A stretch of 25,606 nt of DNA from a virus (IMGVR_UViG_648276669_000005:1-25606); one strand, 5' to 3'; shown: positions 1 to 14,044, counted from the first letter of the stretch. Notes: generated from the sequence alone by a model not told the origin. Numbers and translations are program-made.

Positions 1-1053
1 TTACGGGGTAATGCCAACCGCTGCCGCCACTTTGTCGCCACTTGGCAGCGTTGCCAGAGGGTTGAAACGGAGCGCCGTTTCCAGATGATCCGGTGCCAGA
101 TGTGCGTAACGCATCGTCATTTTTATATCGTGATGCCCGAGAATTTTTTGTAAGGCCAGGATGTTTCCACCCGACATCATAAAATGCGCCGCAAACGTAT
201 GACGCAGAACGTGTGTCAGTTGACCGCGAGGGAGCACGATAGACGTTTTTTCCATCACGGATAAAAATTGAAAATAGCAGTCTTTAAAGAAATTGAACCC
301 ATCAAGTGCCATAATCTCTTCGTAAAGCTCTTTACTGATGGGAATGCTTCTGTTTTTCTTCCCCTTCGTTCTGACAAAGGTAATTCGGTATTTAGTCACC
401 TGTGAACGGGTAAGATTTATTGCTTCTCGCCAGCGTGCGCCTGTGCTTAAGCATATCTTGACTACCAGTGCCAGAATTGGGTCCTGACGTTTGCAATCAG
501 CCAGCAATTCAACAATCTGTTCATGGGTAAGCCATGCCATCTCTTTTTCTGCGATGGTGAATTTTCGCATGTTCTCCAGTGGGTTCGGATACGACCATTC
601 GCCCAGGCGGGATAGTTCGCTAAAAACACTACTTAGATAGCTTTGCTCCAGGTTAACGGTGACCGGGCTTGCTCCTTTCTTCCATTTTTCGCTGAAGTAG
701 ATCTCTCCTGTCAGGCGTTTATCTCGATAGTGGGCAAACATTTTAGAGGTGAGATCGGTTGCAATGGGATTTCCCAGAGCGTCAACCATCAACAGCAATT
801 TGTCATAGACATGCTGCCCAGCCGTCAGAGATTTACCATGTAGTTTGAACCATAGCTCAACCACGTCTTTCAGTGTTCGACGATCCACTGATTCACCCAG
901 CCAGGGTTTTGCTTCGGTTTCTTCCATCGTGTGACGCTCAAAAGCCAATGCTTCACCCTTAGTTGCAAACTGCTTACGCACACGCCGCCCATTGCGCCCG
1001 GCGGGGTAGCATTCACAAATCCATTTACCTGTGTTGAGTTTTCGTACTGCCAT
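1..1053 (-). CDS. int: P2/186-family tyrosine integrase
   Basis: 350 aa from first ATG (pos 1053, GAGGA RBS upstream); ORF-track start at 1080 is TTG. C-terminal HVLRH...HHDIKMTMRYAH fits the tyrosine recombinase R-H-R-Y catalytic pattern; resembles P2 Int as recalled. Stop at window pos 1-3, so att lies outside the window. Confidence 0.9.
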   Translation of the reverse strand: MAVRKLNTGKWICECYPAGRNGRRVRKQFATKGEALAFERHTMEETEAKPWLGESVDRRTLKDVVELWFKLHGKSLTAGQHVYDKLLLMVDALGNPIATDLTSKMFAHYRDKRLTGEIYFSEKWKKGASPVTVNLEQSYLSSVFSELSRLGEWSYPNPLENMRKFTIAEKEMAWLTHEQIVELLADCKRQDPILALVVKICLSTGARWREAINLTRSQVTKYRITFVRTKGKKNRSIPISKELYEEIMALDGFNFFKDCYFQFLSVMEKTSIVLPRGQLTHVLRHTFAAHFMMSGGNILALQKILGHHDIKMTMRYAHLAPDHLETALRFNPLATLPSGDKVAAAVGITP

Positions 1054-1135
1054 AAAAAAGTCCTCATGTCTGAGGACCAAATTTAACTGTATGTTTGAAC
1101 AGTGGTCAATGTTTAAAGATCTTCAATTAAACATT

Positions 1136-2467
1136 TCATTGGAGCAAGAAAACTTTTAAGGTGTTTTTGAATATTCTAACAGGGTCTTCTACACCTGCAT
1201 TTCCTTTTAAAATATGATAATCACTTATTTCAGCCCATCTGTTTTTTTCATCGTTTTCAGAAGGAAGTAAAGGAGAACCTTCTGGCATATATTTATAAGT
1301 TATACCAAATAATGCATAATAGTAGATGTTGATGTTATATTGATCTGTCTGATATGGGAGTCTATTAACACCGAAGAAATTGATTATTAATTGTGCATCT
1401 ATTTTATCTTCTACGTAGTTAAGGGCCAGTTCACGACCAAACGAATAAAGAATTACTGCAAGGGTTCGATAACAGCAATAGCCTGGTATAAATTTATTGC
1501 TGATTTCATTTTGAGATAAAATTTGATAAATTTCTAGATATCTTGATAAGGTTTCAACTTCCCGTAGCGACAAGCCTTTTAGTTCGATAAATTTTTGAAC
1601 TATATGAATACTACTTTCTCCAATTTCTTTTAGTCTTTCAGACTCGTTACATAGCATTCTAAAATGAGAGTTCGAAGCCAAAATTTTATCGTAATTGTTT
1701 TCAGTGAAAGTCACTGGCAGGCTGTAAGTGAATTTTATAAATTTATCAAGATATCTTTCTGAGTCAACACCTGCACCGTAAATATGATTTATTGATGCTT
1801 TCAATTGTGAGATGTTAGCAACTAACAAGAAGTTAAGATTTTCAGTGTCAAAAACATGTTTTATATTTTCGATGATAGAGATGGCAAAGCTTGGTTTACA
1901 ACGGTCAAGTTCGTCAATGATAATTGTTATTTTATTTTCGCTAGTTAGTTCAGCAAGTACTTCCTTGAGAGCAAGCAAATGTTTCTTTGCTTCAATATGA
2001 TCATCAAGCAGTGCTTCTACAGTACCATCTATAGCTGAGTTAGCCGCATCTTTAATAGCATCTTCGAATTCATCCGCAATATCATCTGCATTTTGTTTTA
2101 AAATCCACCCAGCGCCAGCTTTGAGTACAGTTTTAAGTCCAAATCTCAATGCTGGTAATGCCTTTGATATTAATTCCTTCTTTTCACTCTCTGGATATAA
2201 TGCAACTATTGCAGCCATTATAGTAAGTATGGGAGCATCATTATGATCTTCAGTAAATGCATCAATATATACTACTTTATGCCCAGATTCATTTTTTTCA
2301 ATCAATGCCGCTAATTTTTTTGAAAATTCGGTTTTACCGGTACCCCAGTCCCCATCGATAACAATAGGGGATATTTTTAAGGGGGACTCGAGTAAGCTTA
2401 TTATTTTTTCAGCAATGATTTTTCTATTATACTCATCTCTGTTTTCAAAAGTCATATCATTATTCAT
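1136..2467 (-). CDS. KAP-family-like P-loop NTPase (cargo gene)
   Basis: Walker A GDWGTGKT with the Trp typical of KAP NTPases, Walker B IIIDELDRC (KAP-type hhhhD[DE]LDR). No obvious TM insert. First ATG at 2467; 2476 is TTG. Strongly AT-rich relative to phage backbone. Confidence 0.6.
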   Translation of the reverse strand: MNNDMTFENRDEYNRKIIAEKIISLLESPLKISPIVIDGDWGTGKTEFSKKLAALIEKNESGHKVVYIDAFTEDHNDAPILTIMAAIVALYPESEKKELISKALPALRFGLKTVLKAGAGWILKQNADDIADEFEDAIKDAANSAIDGTVEALLDDHIEAKKHLLALKEVLAELTSENKITIIIDELDRCKPSFAISIIENIKHVFDTENLNFLLVANISQLKASINHIYGAGVDSERYLDKFIKFTYSLPVTFTENNYDKILASNSHFRMLCNESERLKEIGESSIHIVQKFIELKGLSLREVETLSRYLEIYQILSQNEISNKFIPGYCCYRTLAVILYSFGRELALNYVEDKIDAQLIINFFGVNRLPYQTDQYNINIYYYALFGITYKYMPEGSPLLPSENDEKNRWAEISDYHILKGNAGVEDPVRIFKNTLKVFLLQ

Positions 2468-2478
2468 ATGAAGCAACC

Positions 2479-2664
2479 TTAGTTTTTAGAACATATTTTC
2501 TTTGACTTGCTTGGCGTTCCATCATTGCAAACGAACTTCCCATCAGATGTACAATGTGAAACTCCCCCTTTCTTACCAGAACATGGATAATTTTTTGCAA
2601 AACTTGTAATAGGTAAAGTAATAAATAAACAAATAAGTAGGATATGTATAGATTTATAAAACAT
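2479..2664 (-). CDS. small secreted Cys-rich protein (signal peptide, about 38-aa mature part with 4 Cys)
   Basis: [23 protein letters not shown] looks like a Sec signal peptide; AAGGAA RBS 6 nt before the second ATG (2664). Mature part [38 protein letters not shown]. Stop 3 nt upstream of the NTPase start, so probably co-transcribed. Confidence 0.5.
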
Positions 2665-2687
2665 ATTTATTTCCTTATACATTAATT

Positions 2688-3251
2688 TTAATAATTGACG
2701 ATCGCGCTTCTAATTTTTCCTATGATATCAATTTCATCTATTTTGCATTCAAAGGAACTGCTGCCGCCATCGACATTTAGACGACGTCCCGGCAGTCTTG
2801 TCAGATTCCTGATAGCAACCTCGCCATCAATATCAACGATCCACTTACCATCACGTACATCCTCATAATCCGAATCACAGATAAACTCTGATGCGCCATC
2901 GATCACAACAAAAGGTTTTTTTAGTTTTTCAGGCAAAAAGTTGTTGTCGAAAATGTAGTAACCATCAGGAAGTAGTTTTCCGCTTGATAAAATCTTCCTT
3001 TCGATCTCTTTTGTGTTTTCTTTTTGTGAACTTTCTTTTGAACCTTGCCCAGTAGTTAGCCACTCTAGCGACGTGCCGGTTTCAAGTGCACATTGGATTA
3101 CCCATTCTGCCGGGAATGAATCACGCATATAGCGCGTGGCTAAGGTGCTTTTAGAAATGCCCAAATGATCACACAAAGCTTGTCTTGTCTTGAAACCATA
3201 GGCTTCAACCATGCGCTCTATGGCCCCACGACCGCCTTTTTCCAAATTCAT
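2688..3251 (-). CDS. cI: 186-type CI immunity repressor
   Basis: N-terminal ...VEAYGF...[16 protein letters not shown] and C-terminal ...[37 protein letters not shown] match my recollection of coliphage 186 CI. ATG at 3251 preceded by GGAG. Confidence 0.8.
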
Positions 3252-3376
3252 GGTCACTCCAAGTGAACTTTTACCTTGACGATTTCATGATGTGATCGTA
3301 TGTTTGCAGTGTTCACATAATACAAACGATCAGTATTCATCCTGATTAATCATTGCTAAAAGAGGAATGTTGCATC
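3252..3376. promoter_or_regulatory. lysis/lysogeny switch region between cI and apl (expected pR/pL promoters and CI operators)
   Basis: 125-bp divergent intergenic region between the repressor and the first early gene; contains partial inverted repeats (gatcgtatgtttg ... caaacgatcag). Operator positions not resolved. Confidence 0.4.
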
Positions 3377-3598
3377 ATGAGACCTAACATTTCAATCACT
3401 CTCATCACCCCCCACGTTACTATAGAAAGATATAGTGAACTCACTGGCTTATCTATCGACACAATTAACGACATGCTTGCAGATGGGCGTTTGCCTCGTC
3501 ATCGCCTACGTAAGGATAAAAAGCGTGAAAAAGTGATGATTAACATTGCTGCGATGACGATCGATGCCCTCTCTGATTGCAACGTGACTATCAACTAG
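3377..3598 (+). CDS. apl: Apl/Cox-like small HTH excisionase-repressor
   Basis: First gene of rightward operon opposite cI; 73 aa from ATG 3377 with AAAGAGGAA RBS; position and size match Apl (186) / Cox (P2). Confidence 0.55.
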   Translation: MRPNISITLITPHVTIERYSELTGLSIDTINDMLADGRLPRHRLRKDKKREKVMINIAAMTIDALSDCNVTIN

Positions 3599-3630
3599 TT
3601 CCATTTTGAGACTTCACGGAGCAACTGACT

Positions 3631-4140
3631 ATGTTTGACTATCGCATTTCAAAACATCCCCATTTCAATGAAGCCTGCCGGGCCTTCGCCCTACGACACA
3701 ACATGGCGAAGCTGGCAGAGCGCGCAGGTATGAACGTTCAAACCTTGCGTAACAAGCTCAACCCGGAACAACCACACCAACTTACTGCGTCAGATATCTG
3801 GCAGTTAACCGATCTCACTGAAGACCCAACACTGGTTGATGGATTTCTGGCTCAGATTCACTGCCTGCCATGTATACCGGTAAATGAGGTGGCAAAAGAG
3901 AGACTGCCACATTACGTCATGAGTGCAACCGCAGAGATCGGGCGTGTTGCTGCAGGTGCGGTTTCTGGCGATGTAAAAACCAGTGCAGGCCGTCGCGATG
4001 CGATCAGCAGCATTAATTCTGTAACACGACTGATGGCGCTGGCGGCTGTTTCATTGCAGGCCCGTTTACAGGCTAATCCTGCGATGGCGAGTGCAGTTGA
4101 TACCGTGACTGGCCTCGGTGCTTCATTCGGTTTGCTGTGA
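3631..4140 (+). CDS. cII: CII-like lysogeny establishment activator (186 type)
   Basis: 169 aa, same length as 186 CII; N-terminal MFDYRISKHPHFNEACRAFALRHNMAKLAERAGMNVQTLRNKLNPEQPHQ resembles 186 CII as recalled; second gene of early operon. Confidence 0.65.
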   Translation: MFDYRISKHPHFNEACRAFALRHNMAKLAERAGMNVQTLRNKLNPEQPHQLTASDIWQLTDLTEDPTLVDGFLAQIHCLPCIPVNEVAKERLPHYVMSATAEIGRVAAGAVSGDVKTSAGRRDAISSINSVTRLMALAAVSLQARLQANPAMASAVDTVTGLGASFGLL

Positions 4141-4147
4141 GGTGCTT

Positions 4148-4444
4148 ATGCTGACGAAAGAACCATCATTTGCATCGCTGCTGATAAAACAAAGCCCGGC
4201 AATGCACTACGGTCACGGCTGGATCATGGGTGAGGATGGTAAACGCTGGCATCCATGTCATTCACAAGATGAATTGCTGTCTGAATTGACCACGAGGAAA
4301 CGGAGAAAGTCAAAATGTATGCAGCGGAAAGTGAAATGGTTTATCAGTTTCGTTACAGAGGGGAGAGTTATTCAGTACCTGAAGATGATTTGCTCTGTTG
4401 CTATCCGTCATTGTCGGGCGATGGCAGTTACTTTTTCGCGTTAA
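4148..4444 (+). CDS. hypothetical early protein (possibly Fil-like); 3' end uncertain
   Basis: ATG 4148 after GAGGTG; N-terminal part looks protein-like, C-terminal part is Cys/Arg-rich and overlaps the next ORF in another frame. Confidence 0.35.
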   Translation: MLTKEPSFASLLIKQSPAMHYGHGWIMGEDGKRWHPCHSQDELLSELTTRKRRKSKCMQRKVKWFISFVTEGRVIQYLKMICSVAIRHCRAMAVTFSR

Positions 4445-4539
4445 AGGATGGGACGTTTTTACGGGGAGAGCAGGTTAAAGAGACGATACGAAAAAATGTA
4501 TCTCCTCTTGAGCGTTACCGTAAGAACAAAGAACGATAG
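4315..4539 (+). CDS. hypothetical early protein
   Basis: 74 aa, GGAG RBS about 10 nt upstream of ATG 4315; protein-like composition. Confidence 0.45.
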   Translation: MYAAESEMVYQFRYRGESYSVPEDDLLCCYPSLSGDGSYFFALKDGTFLRGEQVKETIRKNVSPLERYRKNKER

Positions 4540-4561
4540 CTGCGTTTGGGGGATATGAAGT

Positions 4562-4903
4562 ATGGCAATTAATGGCGCTGCAGCAACTGTTCCATTAAGC
4601 CCCGGTGAACGCCTGAATGGACTTAATCACATTGCGGAGTTAAGGGCGAAAGTTTTTGGCCTGAATATTGAGTCAGAGCTTGAGCGGTTTATTAAAGATA
4701 TGCGTGATCCACGGGATATCAATAATGAACAAAATAAACGGGCACTGGCTGCCATATTCTTTATGGCAAAAATTCCAGCTGAACGTCATAGCATCAGCAT
4801 TAATGAGCTGACCACTGACGAAAAGCGGGAGCTGATTAAAGCAATGAATCATTTTCGTGCAGTGGTGAGCTTATTTCCCAGACGGCTAACCATGCCGAAT
4901 TAA
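4562..4903 (+). CDS. hypothetical early protein
   Basis: 113-aa ORF with ATG 4562 and G-rich RBS; in the early operon. Confidence 0.5.
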   Translation: MAINGAAATVPLSPGERLNGLNHIAELRAKVFGLNIESELERFIKDMRDPRDINNEQNKRALAAIFFMAKIPAERHSISINELTTDEKRELIKAMNHFRAVVSLFPRRLTMPN

Positions 4904-4970
4904 CCAACTAATGAAATTAATGGCGTAAACCCGCCGGGCATCCCTTTATCTAAATTCAGGAGAATTGATT

Positions 4971-5204
4971 ATGCGTAATATTGAAACCCTCACGACTAAA
5001 ACCGGACCGGATGACGCAGGGCTTAATATTTTACTGACAGAGGCTCGTCTGGAAGAACGCCGGGCAAGGGCTGAAGCAATGGCAGCTCGCCTTGATAGCC
5101 TGGCGTGTCATATCTCATCCCGTCAGCTAAACCACGTGGAAGCGGCAGAACTGCTGCGTGTGACTGCTGAAGCAATCCAGAACGAAGCGCAGGAGATCCA
5201 CTAA
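4971..5204 (+). CDS. hypothetical early protein
   Basis: 77 aa from ATG 4971 with AGGAGA RBS 8 nt upstream; the TTG at 4965 is an ORF-track artefact. Confidence 0.5.
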   Translation: MRNIETLTTKTGPDDAGLNILLTEARLEERRARAEAMAARLDSLACHISSRQLNHVEAAELLRVTAEAIQNEAQEIH

Positions 5205-5431
5205 TGGCTGATGCAATGGATCTCGTACAGCAGCGCGTTGAAGAAGAACGCCAGCGCCATATCCGTGCTGCCCGTGCCAAAACGCCGGGCGTGTCCCGCG
5301 TGCTTTGCGTTGAGTGTGAAGCGCCAATTCCGCCAGCACGCCGCCGTGCCATTCCGGGTGTGCAGCTTTGCATTACCTGTCAGGAAATCGCAGAGCTGAA
5401 AGGCAAACATTACAACGGGGGTGCTGTATGA
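5204..5431 (+). CDS. TraR/DksA-family C4 zinc-finger protein
   Basis: 75 aa with CVEC...(17 aa)...CITC four-cysteine spacing typical of TraR/DksA-like phage proteins; start overlaps previous stop. Confidence 0.6.
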   Translation: MADAMDLVQQRVEEERQRHIRAARAKTPGVSRVLCVECEAPIPPARRRAIPGVQLCITCQEIAELKGKHYNGGAV

Positions 5432-6285
5432 GCACCATCCTGAAATGGGCGGGAAATAAAACCGCCGTAATGTCCGAACTGAAAAAACATCTTCCTGCTG
5501 GTCCGCGACTAGTTGAACCTTTCGCGGGTTCCTGTGCTGTGATGATGGAGACGGATTATCCCTGCTATCTGGTTGCGGATATTAATCCTGATTTAATCAA
5601 CCTCTATAAAAAGGTTGCCGCTGATTGTGAATCGTTTATATCTCGCGCCAAAGTTTTATTTGAGATCGCAAACAGGGAGGTGGCTTATTACAACATAAGG
5701 CAGGAGTTTAATTACTCAACTGAAATTACTGATTTCATGAAAGCGGTATATTTCCTGTATCTCAATCGTCACGGTTACCGTGGGTTATGTCGCTATAACA
5801 AGAGCGGGCATTTCAACATTCCCTACGGTAATTATAAAAATCCGTATTTCCCTGAAAAAGAAATTCGCGCTTTTGCAGAAAAAGCCCAGCGAGCAACGTT
5901 TATCTGCGCCAGCTTTGATGAAACGCTGGCGATGTTGAAGGCGGGGGATGTGGTGTATTGCGATCCGCCTTATGACGGTACGTTTTCCGGCTATCACGCT
6001 GACGGCTTTACTGAAGATGACCAGTATCACCTGGCATCCGTTCTTGAACATCGGTCATCAGAAGGACATCCGGCCATTGTTTCTAACAGTGACACATCCC
6101 TGATCCGTTCGCTGTATCGCAATTTTACTCACCACTATATCAAGGTAAAACGCAGCATCGGCGCAGTAGCTGGTGAGAGTAAATCAGCAACAGAAATCAT
6201 TGCTGTTTCCGGGCCGCGCTGCTGGGTGGGATTTGATTATTCGCGTGGCGTGGATAGTTCTGCCGTGTACGGAGTACGTGCATGA
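5428..6285 (+). CDS. dam: DNA N6-adenine methyltransferase (Dam-like)
   Basis: N-terminal LKWAGNK...EPFAGSCAV (AdoMet-binding motif) and catalytic DPPY motif ([10 protein letters not shown]); ATG 5428, stop overlaps A start (ATGA). Confidence 0.75.
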
Positions 6286-8696
6286 GCCATGCCGATATGA
6301 GCAACTGCTGCGGCTTTAACGAGGCTGCCGCATCGTTCTCATGGAACAGCCCGAAAAAGGCCATTAACCCTTATCTGGACCCGGCGGAAGTTGCGCCGGT
6401 TTCTGCGCTTTCAAACCTGATCACTCTGTACGCTGCCGATAACGAGCAGGAACAACTGCGCCGCGAGGCACTGAGTGATCAGGTCTGGGAGCGTTATTTC
6501 TTTAATGAATCCCGTGATCCTGTCCAACGCGAAATAGAGCAGGATAAGCTCATTAGCCGGGCAAAGTTGGCGCATGAGCAGCAGCGTTTTAACCCGGACA
6601 TGGTCATTCTGGCAGACGTCAGCGCCCAGCCCTCCCATATCAGCAAGCCGCTGATGCAACGTATTGAATACTTCAGCAGCCTGGGCAGGCCAAAGGCTTA
6701 TTCCCGCTATTTACGTGAGACGATTAAGCCATGTCTGGAACGACTGGAGCATGTACGCGACAGCCAGCTATCTGCATCTTTTCGTTTTATGGCAAGCCAT
6801 GTAGGGCTGGACGGCCTGCTGATTCTGCCTGAAATGAGTCAGGATCAGGTGAAACGCCTGTCTACCCTTGTCGCTGCGCATATGAGCATGTGCCTTGATG
6901 CAGCTTGTGGTGATTTGTATGCCACCGATGACGTTAAGCCAGAAGAAATCCGCAAGACATGGGAAAAGGTGGCAGCGGAAACCCTGCGTCTGGATGTCAT
7001 CCCGCCTGCGTTTGAGCAACTCCGCCGGAAAAGAAACCGCCGTAAACCCGTGCCCTATGAACTCATTCCGGGTTCGCTGGCGCGTATGTTGTGCGCCGAC
7101 TGGTGGTACCGGAAATTATGGAAAATGCGTTGCGAATGGCGGGAAGAGCAGTTGCGTGCTATCTGCCTGGTCAGCAAAAAAGCATCTCCCTATGTCAGCT
7201 ATGAAGCCGTGATGCATAAACGTGAGCAGCGCCGCAAGTCACTGGAGTTTTTCCGTTCTCATGAACTGGTGAACGAAGAGGGCGACACGCTGGATATGGA
7301 AGACGTGGTAAACGCCAGCAGCAGCAACCCGGCGCACCGCCGCAATGAGATGATGGCCTGTGTTAAAGGTCTGGAGCTTATCGCGGAAATGCGCGGTGAC
7401 TGCGCCGTTTTCTACACCATTACCTGTCCGTCACGTTTCCATTCCACGCTCAATAACGGCAGACCAAACCCAACCTGGACAAATGCGACGGTAAGACAAA
7501 GCAGCGATTATCTGGTCGGCATGTTTGCTGCATTTCGTAAGGCGATGCACAAAGCCGGGTTGCGCTGGTATGGCGTGCGGGTGGCTGAGCCGCATCATGA
7601 CGGTACAGTTCACTGGCACCTGTTGTGTTTCATGCGCAAAAAAGACCGCCGCGCCATTACTGCATTGTTGCGTAAGTTTGCCATCCGTGAAGACCGCGAG
7701 GAACTGGGTAATAACACTGGTCCACGCTTTAAATCTGAGCTGATAAACCCGCGCAAAGGAACGCCGACAAGCTACATCGCGAAATACATCAGTAAGAACA
7801 TTGACGGGCGTGGTCTGGCTGGCGAGATCAGCAAGGAAACGGGTAAATCCCTGCGTGATAACGCTGAATACGTTAATGCCTGGGCGTCTCTGCATCGTGT
7901 TCAGCAATTCCGCTTCTTTGGTATTCCGGGACGTCAGGCTTACCGTGAACTTCGCTTGCTGGCTGGTCAGGCGGCAAGGCAACAGGGTGACAAAAAAGCA
8001 GGTGCGCCGGTACTGGATAACCCGCGCCTTGATGCCATTCTGGCTGCTGCTGATGCTGGTTGTTTTGCCACCTACATCATGAAGCAGGGCGGCGTACTGG
8101 TTCCCCGCAAATATCACCTCATCAGAACCGCTTATGAAATCAACGAAGAGCCAACCGCCTATGGCGATCACGGTATTCGTATTTATGGCATCTGGTCACC
8201 CATTGCAGAGGGCAAGATCTGCACTCATGCAGTGAAGTGGAAAATGGTTCGTAAGGCCGTTGACGTTCAGGAGGCGGCAGCCGACCAGGGCGCTTGCGCC
8301 CCTTGGACTCGTGGCAATAACTGTCCCCTTGCTGAAAATTTGAACCAACAGGAGAAAGATAAATCAGCTGATGGGGACCCCAGAACGGACTTTACCCGCA
8401 TGGATGACAAGGAGTTGCACGATTACCTGCACAGTATGAACAAAAAGGAGCGCCGGGAACTGGCTGCAAGGTTACGCCTGGTGAAACCGAAACGGCGTAG
8501 AGACTACAAACAGCGAATTACAGATCATCAGCGACAGCAGCTCGTCTATGAACTGAAGTCCAGAGGATTTGATGGCAGCGAGAAAGAGGTCGATTTACTC
8601 CTTCGCGGTGGCAGTATTCCGTCAGGAGCAGGCCTGCGTATCTTCTATCGGAACCAGCGTTTGCAGGAAGATGATAAGTGGCGGGATCTGTATTAA
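6282..8696 (+). CDS. A: replication initiation endonuclease gpA (rolling-circle type)
   Basis: 804 aa; HUH-type metal motif (TVHWHLLCF) and tandem-tyrosine motif ([10 protein letters not shown]) characteristic of P2 A protein. Confidence 0.85.
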
Positions 8697-8788
8697 TTAC
8701 GCGGGTTAACAATTCGTGCTCTTAATAATACCAGGCATATCAGGCTGATGAACGTAAAAAAACGTTTTACATCAGTAAGATTATTATA

Positions 8789-8808
8789 TACTGTAAATAT
8801 AAACAGTG
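8789..8808 (+). promoter_or_regulatory. LexA (SOS) box overlapping a sigma70-like promoter
   Basis: tactgtaaatataaacagtg = CTGT-N8-ACAG with AT-only spacer, 17/20 to consensus TACTGTATATATATACAGTA; TTTACA -35-like hexamer upstream; about 40 nt before an AGGAGG-led ORF. Confidence 0.6.
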
Positions 8809-8849
8809 GTTATACGTACAGCATTGCGTGTGGTGTCATAGGAGGAAAG

Positions 8850-9038
8850 ATGCAGGACTATTTTTTGGAGTCTTTGAAGCTCCAGCGCATTGATTTTTTT
8901 CTTAAGCTTGTAGCGGCTAGTGAGTGTAGTGATGAAGAGAAGGGGCTGGCTCTGCAGTGGGTTTCTGAATTGACTGATGAACTCATGGCAAAAATCAGAA
9001 GCCACGAATACAACCGCTCAATGGATGTCATCAGCTGA
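8850..9038 (+). CDS. small SOS-operon protein, function unknown (possibly Tum-like antirepressor fragment)
   Basis: 62 aa from ATG 8850 with AGGAGG RBS; the longer ORF-track version (8748) would read through the LexA box and is rejected. Confidence 0.45.
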   Translation: MQDYFLESLKLQRIDFFLKLVAASECSDEEKGLALQWVSELTDELMAKIRSHEYNRSMDVIS

Positions 9039-9048
9039 GGTGACTTTT

Positions 9049-9282
9049 ATGCGCATTGAAATAATGATCGATAAAGAGCAGAAGATTAGCCAGTCTACAC
9101 TGGACGCCCTTGAATCCGAGCTTTACCGCAATCTGCGCCCCCTGTATCCCAAAACGGTAATTCGTATCCGCAAAGGTAGCTCTAACGGTGTGGAACTGAC
9201 CGGACTGCAACTGGACGAAGAAAGAAAACAAGTGATGAAAATTATGCAGAAGGTGTGGGAAGACGACAGCTGGCTGCATTAA
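9049..9282 (+). CDS. DinI-family protein
   Basis: 77 aa from ATG 9049 (GAGGTGA RBS); MRIEIMIDK...LDALESEL.R...P...VIRIRKG....ELTGL..EERKQVMKIMQKVWEDDSWL parallels E. coli DinI as recalled (MRIEV...IDALAGEL.RR...P...V.VRY....SVIG...EDKQRISEILQETWESADDWF). Confidence 0.65.
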   Translation: MRIEIMIDKEQKISQSTLDALESELYRNLRPLYPKTVIRIRKGSSNGVELTGLQLDEERKQVMKIMQKVWEDDSWLH

Positions 9283-9460
9283 GAAACGTTGCCCCCAGGA
9301 GGATTCATTCTGATGGGGGCTAGTTTGGGCAACGAGTGAAATAAGGTGTAAGGTCATTTTGATAAATGATCGTCTGCTTTGTGCAAGATGCAAACGTTTC
9401 TTCTGCTAACTTTTGTTAATTAACGAATGGCAGACTAATTCGCAACGGATAATCTGAATT

Positions 9461-9489
9461 TTGTAAGATTATGGGCATTTCTATAAAAT
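9461..9489 (+). promoter_or_regulatory. candidate sigma70 promoter for the 647-aa NTPase gene
   Basis: TTGTAA, 17-bp spacer, TAAAAT in AT-rich intergenic DNA about 100 nt upstream of ATG 9597. Confidence 0.25.
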
Positions 9490-9596
9490 TTACTAATAAT
9501 AACCTTACAATGTACACTACCGATTGAATTTTCCATAGTTGGCCTTTGGCTCTACTTACCATCTATGTTTATGTATTTTATCAAAATGGACTAAAA

Positions 9597-11489
9597 ATGA
9601 ACAATACGTACATCAAAGACTATATAGAATATTACCTTAGCCTTACAACTGAACCTCAATACGCCATTATGCTTAAAGGTGCTTGGGGATCAGGTAAAAC
9701 TTGGTTCATTGAACAAGTTCTTGAAGAATATAAGCAGAAGAATTCAGAGTTTAAATTTCTAAAAGTGAGTTTGTATGGCGTCAACTCTATTAAGCAGATT
9801 GAAGATGAGTTCTATCGTCAACTTCATCCTGTCCTATCAAACAAAGCCCTTATCTTTGGTGCAAATGTACTAAAAAATACGCTTAAGGCTACTTTCAAGA
9901 TCGATCTCAATGGCGATAATAAATCTGACGTTGATGTCAATACCAATGTTCCCACCATTAATCTTAACGATTTTAGTAGAAAACCAGATGGTTTTGTGCT
10001 GGTCTTTGATGATATCGAGAGAGCTGGTATAGATTTACCAATTTTATTTGGATATATAAACCACTTTGTAGAAGTAAACGGATACAAAGCGATCTTGGTT
10101 GCCAATGAAGAAGAAATAATCAATAGAGAAAAGCGAATAAATAATGATGATGAGAAATCTAGCAGCGAATATATGAGAACAAAAGAAAAGCTTGTTGGTA
10201 AAACATTTGAAGTAACGTCAGATTTACATAGTGCTTGTAATGTTTTTTTGGGCGTAATTAGCAGTTTACACGTTGCTAATATATTTAAAGAAGATATGCA
10301 GGCCATAGAAGACATCTATGTGTCGGCGAAATATAATAATCTAAGACACTTGAGGCAGTTCTTTCTTGATGTACAACGCATCATTTCCCTTTTGGGAAAT
10401 AAATATGTCAGCAACGACGATTTTATGAGGGTATTTTTCCAGCAGTTGTTAATTTTCTCGATAGAGTACCGGGGAGGGAACCTTAACTACGAGGATTTCG
10501 ATTCAATCAGCAATGTTAATTATGGTATGTTTTTAGGTAAAGAGCGTACCAAAACTAAGTATGACATGATCGCCGAGAAATATTCATCTCCTGTATTAAC
10601 CGAGAAGTTACTGGATGGTGCGTACTGGAGGGAGCTAATCTGTGATGGAAAGGTAACGAGTGAACTTCTCGCTCAGTTGGATATTACGCGATTTTTTAGA
10701 AGCACCGATGCCCAAGCATGGGAGTATTTGTGGAACTATCGAGAACTTAATGAAACTATGCTTAATGAGCAGTACGCCATTGCCAAGGATAATCTATTTT
10801 CAGGTAAGATCACTTCCTTAGGTGAACTCCTGATGACCGCGAGTATTTTGCTGGACATGGCGAAAGAAGGTCTAACAACAGATGATGTTCATGATCTCAT
10901 AAATGAGACAAAACAGAATATAAATAATTATTATAATAGACTTAGAGCTGAAGATATACATAAGGAATATGCGCAAACGCATTATAACGAATTAAGGGCA
11001 TGGCGTGGCTTTGGTTTTCTTGACAGGGATAGCGATGAATTCAAACTCATTATTGAGCATATTGAGATAGCGAAGAAGAAACGGTTTGATGAATCAATTC
11101 CGGAATTTGCGTTGCAGTTCAGCGATGAGTTGCAAAGGGGAAACTTATCGTTTGTATCTGAATTGAGTCATTCTAATAATAGGCAGTTAAATCTTCATAA
11201 CGTGCCTTTTTTACACTTGGTTCCTCCTGAAGTTTTCATTGAAAGCTATAGGAAACTTGACCCAGTCCTCATGAGGAAACTGGCATTTAGCTTGCGGAAT
11301 CGTTATTCTGATGGGGATGCTAGAACCAGACTGACCGAAGAATACAACTGGTTGATTAACCTAAAAGAGATAGCTGTAGATTTCACTCAAAACGCAGCCA
11401 ATAACTCCTTTCAGGTTTTTCACGTAAAGTTTTTTATTGACTATGTACTAACTAGCGCAATCAAATTCTTTACTGAGGGAACTGATTAA
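9597..11489 (+). CDS. KAP-family-like P-loop NTPase, 630 aa (hotspot cargo; candidate defence protein)
   Basis: Walker A GAWGSGKT (KAP-type Trp), Walker B VLVFDDIERAG, large C-terminal region without recognisable motifs. First ATG at 9597; track start 9546 is TTG. AT-rich. Confidence 0.6.
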   Translation: MNNTYIKDYIEYYLSLTTEPQYAIMLKGAWGSGKTWFIEQVLEEYKQKNSEFKFLKVSLYGVNSIKQIEDEFYRQLHPVLSNKALIFGANVLKNTLKATFKIDLNGDNKSDVDVNTNVPTINLNDFSRKPDGFVLVFDDIERAGIDLPILFGYINHFVEVNGYKAILVANEEEIINREKRINNDDEKSSSEYMRTKEKLVGKTFEVTSDLHSACNVFLGVISSLHVANIFKEDMQAIEDIYVSAKYNNLRHLRQFFLDVQRIISLLGNKYVSNDDFMRVFFQQLLIFSIEYRGGNLNYEDFDSISNVNYGMFLGKERTKTKYDMIAEKYSSPVLTEKLLDGAYWRELICDGKVTSELLAQLDITRFFRSTDAQAWEYLWNYRELNETMLNEQYAIAKDNLFSGKITSLGELLMTASILLDMAKEGLTTDDVHDLINETKQNINNYYNRLRAEDIHKEYAQTHYNELRAWRGFGFLDRDSDEFKLIIEHIEIAKKKRFDESIPEFALQFSDELQRGNLSFVSELSHSNNRQLNLHNVPFLHLVPPEVFIESYRKLDPVLMRKLAFSLRNRYSDGDARTRLTEEYNWLINLKEIAVDFTQNAANNSFQVFHVKFFIDYVLTSAIKFFTEGTD

Positions 11490-11553
11490 CTTTTTGTTGA
11501 TTAACATAGGCAATATTATTAGAAGTACTAGGGATAGTCAGTAAAATTATTAA

Positions 11554-11590
11554 CGTCCGCTTCGCTCAAAGCGGACTTTGTGCTTTATAA
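11554..11590 (+). terminator. rho-independent terminator after the NTPase gene
   Basis: gtccgctt-cgctca-aagcggac perfect 8-bp stem-loop followed by tttgtgcttt. Confidence 0.55.
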
Positions 11591-11774
11591 AAACGAGAGT
11601 TTTGTTTTTCAAGCGGTCATTCGGTTACGGGATTTCACTTCCCCCGTAAGTGCATGACTATGCCGCATGAGATCGCATGATCGTTTGCGGATCGTTTTTG
11701 CTAAGGCACGCCAGAACTGGTGGGATTTTGCGTAGATCATGCGCCTGCATGAAAACCGCTACATAAAGCGGGCA

Positions 11775-11793
11775 GGCGTGGCGGGGATACGAG
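11775..11793. other. candidate cos site (cohesive-end sequence of P2/186-type phage)
   Basis: ggcgtggcggggatacgag followed by cgcgcgct; closely resembles my recollection of the P2/186 19-nt cohesive ends (GGCG[A/T]GGCGGGGAAAGCA[C/T]) followed by a GCGCGC element. From memory only. Confidence 0.4.
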
Positions 11794-11919
11794 CGCGCGC
11801 TTAAGGATGAATTGAAGTTGATTTAATTTTTCGACATGGATAATCTTAACTACGTATGATTATTGATAAAAAATAAACATAAACAATTGTAGCGGATCTT
11901 AAAACTTATTAGGATTAGT

Positions 11920-12975
11920 ATGCTTAAAACAAATAAGGTATTTATTGACACACAAACGTACGTAAAGGCTGGTCTTCATTTTGAGGGGGTAGCATTTAAA
12001 GCTTTCCATGAATTATGTGCGAAAGGTGATTTAGTCTTAATTACAACTACAGTTGTAGAGAGAGAAGTAAAAGGTAAAATAGAGGAATCAATAAAGGATG
12101 CTCTGCAGGCTATAAACACAGTACAAAGAAAAGCTAGGCTTTTGAATAGTATTGATAATGGACCGCTCCATGGTTTTTTTCAGCAATTTAACGAACATGA
12201 AATTCACGAAGCAGCACAAAAAGTTTTTGATGATTTTTTGAAAGGATGTCACGCCAAATTAGCTACAATAGAAGTGATAGATCTTAATGAGGTTTTAGAT
12301 AAATACTTTGGCAAAGAACCACCATTTGGGCAAAATAAGAAAAAAAGTGAGTTTCCTGATGCAATCACTTTAGCTGCGGTAGAGCGATTTGTTAATGATG
12401 AAGATGTGTATATCATTTCTGAGGATAGTGACTTAAAAAATTATTGTGATGGTAAAAACAATCTTCATCAAATTGATTCACTTGATAAGTTTCTAGGTGA
12501 ATACAATACGCATACAAACGAATTAAGTAATAAATTGATGCAGTTTATCGAAAGCAAACGTGAAGACATAAGAGCGGACGTAATTGCCCAACTCAATGAT
12601 GCCGATGGATATAACGTTTCAACTTGGGAAGACGCTGAATTGGATTCATTTGAAGTCGTCAATATTGATGACTTTGAACCATCAATAATTAAGATTGACA
12701 ATAATTATTGTCTAGCGACCTTCTCTGTTTCTGTAGATTTTGAAGTTACTGTTTCTGGTCCAGACTTTAATAATGGGTATTGGGATAGCGAAGATAAAGT
12801 AATGATTCCAATGGAGACAACCACACGAACTGAAGTTCAAGAGATTAGTTTCGATATTGAAATTGAAGTTATGTATGAAATCGAGGATGGTGAATTAACA
12901 GATATCGCATTTGATGTGAATATTGATAAGTTATCCCGAGGGATTGAGTTCTCTATTGAAGAAAATAATTTTTAA
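11920..12975 (+). CDS. hypothetical protein with N-terminal PIN-like nuclease fold and acidic C-terminal domain (cargo)
   Basis: 351 aa; N-terminus KVFIDTQTYV (PIN motif-1-like hhhDT), VVEREV, later DAITLAAVERFVNDEDVYIISEDSDL giving the spaced acidic residues of PIN domains; C-terminal third very D/E-rich. AT-rich with own AT-rich upstream region. Confidence 0.45.
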   Translation: MLKTNKVFIDTQTYVKAGLHFEGVAFKAFHELCAKGDLVLITTTVVEREVKGKIEESIKDALQAINTVQRKARLLNSIDNGPLHGFFQQFNEHEIHEAAQKVFDDFLKGCHAKLATIEVIDLNEVLDKYFGKEPPFGQNKKKSEFPDAITLAAVERFVNDEDVYIISEDSDLKNYCDGKNNLHQIDSLDKFLGEYNTHTNELSNKLMQFIESKREDIRADVIAQLNDADGYNVSTWEDAELDSFEVVNIDDFEPSIIKIDNNYCLATFSVSVDFEVTVSGPDFNNGYWDSEDKVMIPMETTTRTEVQEISFDIEIEVMYEIEDGELTDIAFDVNIDKLSRGIEFSIEENNF

Positions 12976-12993: not shown

Positions 12994-13020
12994 GGCATCA
13001 TTGTGATGCCATTGGGTTTT
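12994..13020 (+). terminator. stem-loop terminator between convergent PIN-like gene and Q
   Basis: ggcatca-ttg-tgatgcc perfect 7-bp hairpin followed by attgggtttt. Confidence 0.45.
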
Positions 13021-14044
13021 ATAATGTATATATTTCAAAATTTATAATTTCATGACCAAGCCATCTGTTTATTTCCATGAATCTTTTTTGAAGTGGTAAT
13101 AGTTCATTTCTTACGAAGACGCAGCTCGCCTTCTCCACATCACCAAAACCCCCAACATTATTCGGCAAAATTCCCATCATCTGAGGCGGTACGCGGTGTG
13201 CCGCCATCATGTCATCACGGCTGACGTTCTTGATGTTCAGAAATTCATCCTTCGCCGCGACTTCTGACAACGGGATGATCTGAAGCCCGTCCTTTTTGCC
13301 GTTAGGCGAGTACATAAACAGGTTGCGGAAGTTGCCAGGGCCTTTGGCGCTTTTCATCGCATTGCGGAGGTTGTTCACATCCTCCTGGTTCTGCGCGGCA
13401 TCGGTCATGTACATGATGAAGCCTGCATGGCTGCCGTTAATGTAATACTTCCGGCGGAACAGCGTGGCGGACTCGTTGAGCAGGGCTGACGGAATGGCAG
13501 AAAGATAACCTGGTAGGCCGTAGATCTCCTGGTTGATGTCAGGTTCCATCAGATGAAAAATGCTGCCTTTCGTGAACTGATACGGCTGGGTTGTCATACC
13601 GTATTGCACAAACCAGTAGGTATCCAGGTCTAACCCGCGTCGGGTGTATTTTGCCAGCGCAGGCTCAAGGGCGATAACTTCACCGAAGCGGTTCGTGCGT
13701 TTCTCCAGGTAGGCGTTACCAAATACCAGGTAGTCCTGCACAAAACGTGAAAAAGCCTGCTGACTGAGCAGCGGGTGAGGGATATAGGTACTGGTCAGAA
13801 TGTTGCACTTTACTGCAATCGGGGAACTGTGATGCACGGCAGCGCGGAAGGTGCGCGCCAGTCCGTCAAAGCTGACGGGCGGCTCATACCAACGGTCCAT
13901 CTGTACGCATTCCACATAGTCCAGTAATTCTCGGCGGTCCAGAACAGGAACGGGATCGCCGAAGCTGAATGCTTCGGCTGTAGTTTGACTTTTAAGCTGG
14001 ATCTGATTCGTCGCCGCAGCGCGGTTCTTCTTACTCTTTCCCAT
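13019..14044 (-). CDS. Q: portal protein gpQ
   Basis: 341 aa, matching P2 Q (about 344 aa) in size and position, convergent with hotspot and upstream of terminase; ATG 14044 overlaps P stop. Confidence 0.85.
   Translation of the reverse strand: MGKSKKNRAAATNQIQLKSQTTAEAFSFGDPVPVLDRRELLDYVECVQMDRWYEPPVSFDGLARTFRAAVHHSSPIAVKCNILTSTYIPHPLLSQQAFSRFVQDYLVFGNAYLEKRTNRFGEVIALEPALAKYTRRGLDLDTYWFVQYGMTTQPYQFTKGSIFHLMEPDINQEIYGLPGYLSAIPSALLNESATLFRRKYYINGSHAGFIMYMTDAAQNQEDVNNLRNAMKSAKGPGNFRNLFMYSPNGKKDGLQIIPLSEVAAKDEFLNIKNVSRDDMMAAHRVPPQMMGILPNNVGGFGDVEKASCVFVRNELLPLQKRFMEINRWLGHEIINFEIYTL

Follow-up and report, generated by a model that had tools for sequence, protein, structure and literature searches.

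Several described anti-phage systems contain a KAP-family P-loop NTPase. PifA of the F plasmid, the single-gene factor responsible for T7 exclusion, is a soluble KAP NTPase of 720 aa without transmembrane (TM) helices; QatA is the KAP NTPase of QatABCD; and RdrA of RADAR, a ring-forming sensor ATPase of ~800 aa, is partnered by the deaminase RdrB. EF_KAP, a protein of Firmicutes origin that possesses TM helices, and the KAP-fusion defenses (PMC13552941), along with Reve, a KAP single-gene defense system of P4 satellites (PMC13586616), join the NTPase to a C-terminal region without a known domain and are protective as single genes. PADLOC also includes PDC-S20 and PDC-S49, two single-gene candidate families without a conserved partner. 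The hotspots that house defense genes in P2-like phages are described in PMC13586616 and PMC9122126: the gpA-to-portal interval is the main one (PMC13586616; PMC9122126), 8% of P2 systems are housed in the integrase-to-primase interval, K139-like Vibrio phages have a hotspot between cI and int, and 10% of defended P2-like prophages have more than one hotspot occupied by such systems (PMC13586616). Here, we analyzed an E. coli 186/P2-like (Peduoviridae) prophage sequence, IMGVR_UViG_648276669_000005:1-25606 (25,606 nucleotides; the window), that encodes two KAP NTPases. KAP-B lies with a PIN_12 gene in the main gpA-to-portal hotspot (slot 2), and KAP-A occupies the minor, integrase-to-primase one, between int and cI (slot 1) (PMC9122126, PMC13586616). 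The two proteins were found to be remote homologs that assort independently. We consider it probable that three low-GC cassettes were acquired separately, that KAP-A and KAP-B are independent and met by chance, and that each is likely a single-protein anti-phage switch.

KAP-A and KAP-B correspond over their full lengths, with no detectable difference, to the PADLOC families. KAP-A matched PDC-S20 (PDLC04956) with an expectation value (E) of 1.1e-171 over residues 1-441 of 443, and KAP-B matched PDC-S49 (PDLC05031) with E 2.5e-160 over residues 2-623 of 630. When compared with Pfam PF07693 (KAP_NTPase; gathering score of 20 bits), KAP-A gave 174.6 bits (E 3.7e-51) and KAP-B gave 79.3 bits (E 3.8e-22), in each case across model positions 2-290 of 293. 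The Walker A and Walker B motifs are GDWGTGKT (residue 39) and IIIDELDR (residue 182) in KAP-A, and GAWGSGKT (residue 28) and VLVFDDIER (residue 134) in KAP-B; these fit the family patterns GxWGxGK[ST] and hhhD[DE]x[DE]R, and no motif residue varies in either family alignment, each of which contained 30 sequences drawn from a search of 5.8 billion proteins. With whole-domain matches above the gathering score and the Walker motifs kept, both proteins are assigned to the KAP family by sequence. Neither has a TM segment (maximum Kyte-Doolittle 19-residue means of 1.10 for KAP-A and 1.47 for KAP-B), in contrast to EF_KAP; such helices are typical of many family members, absent in PifA, and not strictly defining. 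The start codons of both genes are the same as in the RefSeq annotation of E. coli H2 and SFE8.

Comparison with the better-described NTPases placed both proteins outside those systems. KAP-A shares the NTPase half of PifA, aligning only through its N-terminal ~250 residues (profile positions 14-255, E 3e-15), and is thus not a PifA; the corresponding value for KAP-B was 0.0028. For contrast, slot 2 of a sister prophage holds a true PifA-like KAP of 716 aa (L286:8214-10361; PADLOC PifA, E 7e-65). KAP-A also gave a weak match to QatA (PADLOC, E 2e-10; NCBIfam, 42.9 bits versus a cut-off of 600), but its neighbors are int, ydcA, and cI, with no adjacent qatB, qatC, or qatD, so that it does not belong to QatABCD. 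RdrA was the best Protein Data Bank (PDB) fold match of KAP-A (Foldseek E 1e-5, TM-score 0.42-0.45) and was among the KAP-B matches as well, and the S. suis RdrA chain 8fnu_A is labeled in the PDB as a "KAP NTPase domain-containing protein." Neither slot contains an RdrB-like or deaminase gene, however, and the pair is not a RADAR system. The layout of KAP-A and KAP-B resembles that of EF_KAP, the KAP-fusion defenses, and Reve; for Reve, the likeness is to its description (PMC13586616) and not to its sequence.

The two proteins resemble each other only in their NTPase cores. BLASTP of KAP-A against KAP-B recovered just a 29-residue stretch that includes Walker A (E 0.009). Alignment of the family profiles by hhalign yielded 96% probability and E 1.9e-9 across 172 columns with ~22% identity, pairing residues 35-250 of KAP-A with 24-206 of KAP-B. 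These residues make up the NTPase core, which runs from Walker A to slightly beyond sensor 1; residues 251-443 of KAP-A and 207-630 of KAP-B gave no profile-profile alignment. KAP-A scored higher on the PADLOC models for PifA and QatA than on any PDC-S49 model, and a repeat search for DNA shared between the two cargo regions returned short chance matches only. The core-only alignment, together with the separate PADLOC families, indicates remote superfamily members rather than a recent duplicate pair; as judged from the alignments, KAP-A and KAP-B are remote homologs with only the NTPase core in common. The original prediction, made from the nucleotide sequence without database searches, had reported two KAP-like NTPases of 443 and 630 aa with Walker motifs, and both are confirmed as open reading frames with full-domain Pfam matches and not chance motif coincidences. 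It had also called the two products paralogous, a term that holds as remote superfamily homology of the NTPase core and does not extend beyond it, where nothing C-terminal aligns.

AlphaFold2 (AF2) models of KAP-A (pLDDT 79) and KAP-B (pLDDT 82) depict an ATPase of AAA+/STAND-like fold and, C-terminal to it, an all-helical region, with the insert between Walker A and Walker B modeled as low-confidence soluble helices. The fold matches of these models included RdrA, Cdc6/Orc, TnsC, BrxC, and NLR ATPases. A PDB sequence search using both family profiles matched no chain, so the structural assignments are drawn from the AF2 models. The C-terminal regions are the least conserved parts of both proteins, consistent with what a specificity domain would show.

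KAP-A and KAP-B assort independently, and their co-occurrence is at chance level. When 5426 complete E. coli genomes were searched at the megablast level, KAP-A was present in 9, KAP-B in 46, and both in none, with an overlap of 0.08 expected under independence. A family-level survey covered 232 loci taken from GTDB genomes and IMG/VR (L numbers denote the loci compared in this study), and 38 loci had a KAP-A-family gene in the int-cI slot with differing neighbors; slot 2 could be evaluated in 36 of these and contained a KAP-B-family gene in L022 only. L022, a contig of assembly GCA_021725975.1, is the window prophage itself (99.986% identity over 21.5 kb), and the exact pair is essentially this one genotype plus a few identical contigs. 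A cargo-blind sample of 80 IMG/VR contigs was picked by gpA (at least 97% identity), and 67 of them showed both slots under loose visibility rules: 3 had a KAP gene in slot 1, 5 had one in slot 2, 59 had none in either slot, and no contig had KAP genes in both (0.23 expected). Conditional frequencies likewise did not differ from baseline, as slot 2 contained a KAP gene in 1 of 24 loci with one in slot 1 (Fisher p 1.0) and slot 1 contained a KAP gene in 2 of 17 loci with one in slot 2 (Fisher p 0.27). Next to near-identical copies of KAP-A, slot 2 carried HEPN_LA2681 plus AAA_22 or PIN, HNH plus AIPR, DUF8087 plus an RVT_1 reverse transcriptase, AAA_13, SieB, or unknown genes. Next to near-identical copies of KAP-B, slot 1 was "empty" (YdcA-like gene only) or held SNIPE/T5orf172 or DUF4747 plus a 201-aa gene, with KAP-A found in L022 only. 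The KAP lineages were slot specific: PDC-S20 types occurred only between int and cI (slot-1 loci L241, L284, and L309), and PDC-S49-like KAPs (565-630 aa) and the PifA-like 716-aa KAP only between tum and cos (L242, L251, L255, L286, and L293). Neither the co-occurrence nor the co-inheritance that mark a two-gene system was detected for KAP-A and KAP-B. Two further double-KAP prophages, with other lineage combinations, are as expected if two cargo classes, each moderately common, assort independently. Locus L111 has a PDC-S20-type fragment next to cI (1-699, minus strand) and KAP-B at 91% identity (7866-9824, plus strand), and L158 has KAP-A at 71% identity (10001-11329, plus strand) and a distant PDC-S49-like KAP after tum (1-1347, minus strand).

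The histories of the two genes are also different. At 42 loci where a KAP-A-family gene neighbors cI (e.g., L157, L158, L161, and L168), the amino-acid identity of KAP-A followed that of cI (Spearman 0.91), with KAP-A/cI levels of 100/100, 88/86, 71/64, 63/55, and 55/54, while int and gpA remained at ~97%. This divergence in step with cI suggests that the PDC-S20 family is an old resident of the hyper-divergent immunity block (the cI-int operon). One locus, L166, is an outlier with KAP-A at 56% and cI at 89%. KAP-B alleles of at least 99.5% identity are flanked by cI alleles that are 39-100% identical and int alleles that are 54-100% identical. The window is itself a mosaic: positions 1-9380 are 97.7% identical to the E. 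coli H2 prophage, which has a HEPN gene at the KAP-B position (an L001-like left part), and the sequence from 4562 onward is 99.2% identical to L020, a prophage without KAP-A (an L020-like right part). KAP-A and KAP-B probably entered the phage lineage separately, were exchanged among prophages through homologous recombination between their conserved flanks, and came together in the window prophage by chance.

The KAP-A island has a GC content of 33% and the KAP-B island one of 37%, compared to 48-53% for int, gpA, and portal. In slot 1, the KAP-A cassette is missing from otherwise homologous prophages that have a YdcA-like gene alone between int and cI, and the int-cI gap in related prophages measures 10-60, ~405, 1072-1117, 1465, 1638, 1787, or 1905 bp. 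Phage 186 has abutting cI and int genes that form the lysogenic operon, with pL transcribing cI and then int (186 annotation). In the window, the genes cI, ydcA, KAP-A, and int all run leftward with successive gaps of 5, 11, and 82 nt, and this arrangement together with the 186 pL layout places KAP-A within the lysogenic operon, of which int is the final gene. By synteny with 186, KAP-A is probably expressed constitutively with cI in the lysogen. The ratio of nonsynonymous to synonymous substitution rates (dN/dS) was 0.11-0.16 for KAP-A and 0.11-0.30 across both KAP genes, revealing purifying selection. The KAP-A family also occurs as a solitary gene in unrelated contexts, and KAP-B-family genes stand alone in contexts from Pseudomonas, Paraburkholderia, and Lysobacter.

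In slot 2, KAP-B takes the position of orf97 of phage 186, between an SOS-controlled tum-like gene and cos. The order in 186 is LexA-controlled p95, tum, a partial terminator, orf97, the terminator t95b, and cos, and expression of orf97 blocks 186 infection (186 annotation). The KAP-B cassette is absent or swapped for other cargo in related prophages, and the distance from tum to portal in "empty" prophages is ~412 bp. A LexA-box-like palindrome that is a perfect CTGT-N8-ACAG match is situated 5' of orf62 and the tum-like gene, and its position suggests that cargo 3' of tum may receive SOS-dependent read-through. Transcription of KAP-B may start at a promoter of its own, reach the gene by SOS read-through from that of tum, or do both. 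Searching the window for the P2 cos sequence, with as many as three mismatches allowed, gave no match; the site found is of the 186 type, and the 152-bp cos block (11649-11800) keeps 94% identity even where a relative has nothing in the slot. This cos site separates KAP-B from the PIN_12 gene and thereby divides the gpA-to-portal hotspot into two sub-slots, tum-to-cos and cos-to-portal, a detail of this 186-like lineage that is not spelled out in the available parts of PMC9122126 and PMC13586616. In virion DNA, KAP-B is at the right end and PIN_12 is at the left. The PIN_12 gene is part of neither KAP module and belongs to a third cassette with breakpoints at ~11801 and 13027/13085 (blastn against relatives), and the two sub-slots vary independently: PIN is found with HEPN_LA2681 replacing KAP-B in L001; sister prophages have ParA plus SIR2, a 191-aa gene plus a DprA-like gene, or a DUF4145 or AAA_22 protein instead of PIN; and KAP-B occurs with ParA plus SIR2, DprA-like, or DUF4145 genes in place of PIN. 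A two-gene operon of KAP-B and PIN_12 was considered and rejected, as a terminator and cos intervene and each gene is found without the other.

Both genes occupy published defense hotspots, and for the KAP-A family, the neighborhoods are of the defense type. All three cassettes show the features of a hotspot, namely variable content between conserved backbone genes and atypical base composition, and the other occupants of both slots include the defense-type genes AIPR, SieB, reverse transcriptase, SIR2, SNIPE, HEPN, and the true PifA-like KAP. Type I restriction-modification (R-M) genes were present in 20 of the 80 species-level KAP-A-family loci, mostly in the order hsdM/S-KAP-hsdR and far from any prophage. 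The interior of an hsdM/S-hsdR operon is a classic position of embedded defense genes, and the hsdS-KAP-hsdR embedding supports a defense role for the PDC-S20 family and suggests a possible link to restriction. The R-M-embedded loci include L028, L030, L031, L033, L036, L038, L042, L047, L048, L061, and L063, with the KAP gene at ~10001-11300. Other KAP NTPases with uncharacterized C-terminal regions protect from phage, and for these both Walker B and the C-terminus are required (PMC13552941).

We favor the explanation that KAP-A, KAP-B, and PIN_12 reached this prophage in separate cassettes and that each KAP protein would act alone as a soluble, AAA+/STAND-like, single-chain NTPase switch. 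The variable helical C-terminal region could sense a phage cue or product, and NTP-dependent oligomerization, as in the RdrA ring and STAND proteins, might then block phage multiplication. Membrane leakage of the PifA type is a known or proposed mode among related NTPases. ATP turnover with ion export, as for Tmn, is another (PMC13001434), and the window data do not discriminate between these modes.

An arrangement in which KAP-A and KAP-B constitute one functional system, either as a split sensor and effector or as a mixed ring formed via the ATPase cores, appears very improbable to us. It would account for the same oligomerizing NTPase core in both proteins, for neither having a recognizable effector domain, and for the recurrence of double-KAP prophages in three lineage combinations (L022, L111, and L158). 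Against it stand the much more frequent occurrence of each gene without the other, with no E. coli genome containing both and conditional frequencies equal to the baseline, the solitary occurrence of both families in unrelated contexts and their treatment as single-gene candidates in PADLOC, and the separation of the genes, which have different histories and are placed at a distance of 7 kb, on opposite strands and within different transcription units. The original prediction had placed the two genes in different cargo slots, as borne out by the separate low-GC islands and by related prophages varying in gene content at exactly these positions. It had offered independent defense modules or a split sensor/effector arrangement as the meaning of the pair; assortment and histories argue for the former, and 0 of 5426 genomes with both argues against the latter. 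It had further proposed that an alignment limited to generic P-loop motifs, together with no co-occurrence in other genomes, would refute its reading, and for the coupled reading essentially this was observed: similarity is confined to the family-defining domain, the suggested analysis across prophages gave co-occurrence at chance level only (0 of 67 cargo-blind contigs, 0 of 5426 genomes), and the pair occurs in one identical prophage only. A broader possibility, quite improbable in our estimation, is that KAP NTPases of different lineages may cooperate within one prophage, through mixed rings of homologous cores or by covering escape routes, and that the slot preferences represent two expression regimes of a layered immunity. 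We regard it as rather unlikely that the two systems are independent and were selected as a pair for synergy or complementary phage range. Synergy of NTPase-based with other defenses is documented for Tmn with Gabija (PMC13001434), occupancy of multiple hotspots occurs in P2-like prophages as noted above, and this prophage has a third cargo gene, PIN_12; nevertheless, the pair was not enriched over chance in any sample and is found in essentially one genotype.

The remaining alternatives concern the role of the individual genes. One or both KAPs could serve the prophage by controlling lysogeny or induction, or could act against other mobile elements rather than in defense, a proposal that we judge unlikely. 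The tracking of cI by KAP-A and its location inside the cI-int operon are compatible with such a function, as is the location of KAP-B after tum and downstream of a LexA box. The co-divergence with cI is, however, expected from tight linkage beside a hyper-divergent immunity gene; the genes are dispensable, with many close relatives lacking them or carrying known defense genes instead; and KAP-A relatives reside inside type I R-M operons far from prophages. It is extremely improbable that one or both KAP genes are decaying, functionless remnants. Nothing specific points to decay beyond a frameshifted KAP-B in L116 and, in L111, a KAP next to cI that is cut short with 233 aa readable at the contig end, whereas the window copies are full-length with intact catalytic motifs, are under the purifying selection described above, and belong to sets of 46 and 9 E. 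coli copies that are all annotated as intact proteins. Several points weigh against the explanation of independent, separately acquired anti-phage switches. The anti-phage role of both genes is assigned by association, and a full-text literature search found no paper naming or testing PDC-S20 or PDC-S49. Pfam and fold searches recognized no effector domain (nuclease, TIR, pore, etc.) in KAP-A or KAP-B. Expression from pL or p95 is deduced from synteny with 186, and a promoter consensus scan of the region gave 31 sites versus 28.7 expected in shuffled sequence, with no excess. Finally, three different double-KAP prophages were encountered, numbers small enough to leave room for a weak positive association.

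The features of the window are compiled in Table 1. The sequence starts at the stop codon of int and spans 25.6 kb with the order int, KAP-A, ydcA-like, cI, apl/cox, cII, fil-region genes, DksA-like, dam, and gpA, followed by a 62-aa ORF, DinI/Tum-like, KAP-B, PIN_12, portal, terminase, scaffold, capsid, and late genes. Backbone genes identified were int, 186-type cI, apl/cox, cII, fil, dam, gpA, DinI/tum-like, portal, terminase, and capsid; the DinI/Tum-like gene is labeled DinI-like in the L001 and L002 annotation. In L022, rcdA adjoins the prophage, and sister prophages in complete E. coli genomes use the same integration site. No tRNA genes were present in the window. A search of a phage-record collection gave no record with either KAP gene at 80% coverage or more; the backbone alone was matched.

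Table 1. Positions of the KAP genes, their cassettes, and neighboring features in the window (open reading frame, ORF)
Feature	Position	Strand	Evidence
Integrase, P2/186 type	1..1053	-	ORF; L001 and L002 homologs annotated as 350-aa phage integrase; Pfam Phage_integrase in homologs
KAP-A, 443-aa soluble KAP-family P-loop NTPase, PADLOC PDC-S20	1136..2467	-	Pfam, PADLOC, motifs, AF2 model
KAP-A cassette	1146..2480	.	blastn breakpoints vs L019, L013, L021, L241
Small YdcA-like secreted protein, 61-67 aa, signal peptide	2479..2682	-	NCBIfam PRK10040, PHROG 6000, Pfam YdcA
186-type CI repressor, first gene of lysogenic operon cI-ydcA-KAP-A-int	2688..3257	-	Pfam Phage_CI_repr and Phage_CI_C
Replication initiator gpA, left bound of hotspot 2	6282..8696	+	Pfam Phage_GPA, E 1.7e-127
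LexA-box-like palindrome CTGTAAATATAAACAG, putative counterpart of 186 SOS promoter p95	8791..8806	+	Pattern match; function inferred
DinI/Tum-like protein, 77 aa, final backbone gene before KAP-B cassette	9049..9282	+	Pfam DinI, E 1.2e-22
KAP-B cassette: AT-rich leader, gene, terminator	9293..11648	.	blastn breakpoints vs L005, L261, L277, L001, L010
KAP-B, 630-aa soluble KAP-family P-loop NTPase, long all-helical C-terminal region, PADLOC PDC-S49	9597..11489	+	
Intrinsic-terminator-like hairpin and T-run, counterpart of 186 t95b	11555..11576	+	Top-ranked terminator-like site; 186 annotation
cos site, 19-nt cohesive end GGCGTGGCGGGGATACGAG	11775..11793	+	64-nt alignment to joined 186 ends, 81% identity, E 1e-13
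PIN_12-domain protein, 351 aa, third cargo cassette between cos and portal	11920..12975	+	Pfam PIN_12, E 1.6e-25
Portal protein (P2 Q / 186 W), right bound of hotspot 2	13019..14044	-	ORF; Pfam Phage_portal in homologous loci

Several of the neighboring genes were characterized further. The YdcA-like protein is Cys-rich with a Kyte-Doolittle hydrophobicity of 2.09, and its gene has 29% GC. Because a 67%-identical copy occurs in L002 and L019, both of which are without KAP-A, the YdcA-like gene is a separate small cargo gene, and its pairing with KAP-A was rejected. Sister prophages can instead carry, in the int-cI interval, a 558-aa SNIPE/T5orf172/MUG113 protein (L013:1393-3069) or the two-gene DUF4747 plus 201-aa module (L021:1092-2748). 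The PIN_12 protein gave no PADLOC match, and its C-terminal region has no assigned fold. A Dam-type N6-adenine methyltransferase gene (5368-6285, plus strand; MethyltransfD12, E 4e-74) is directly 5' of gpA, with which it overlaps; at this place, phage 186 carries other non-essential genes.

Given that both families have PADLOC models and that both hotspots as well as multi-hotspot occupancy have been published, the finding is already known in kind. With the double-KAP prophage best read as a chance mosaic, the split-system hypothesis needs no pursuit, and the practical value of the result is modest. The analysis also maps where a 186-like prophage carries its cargo, namely in three slots located within the lysogenic operon, between tum and cos, and between cos and portal. 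As a defense class, KAP NTPases are under-studied, and these two soluble, single-gene E. coli examples, with their natural promoters and the well-understood framework of phage 186, would be convenient models.

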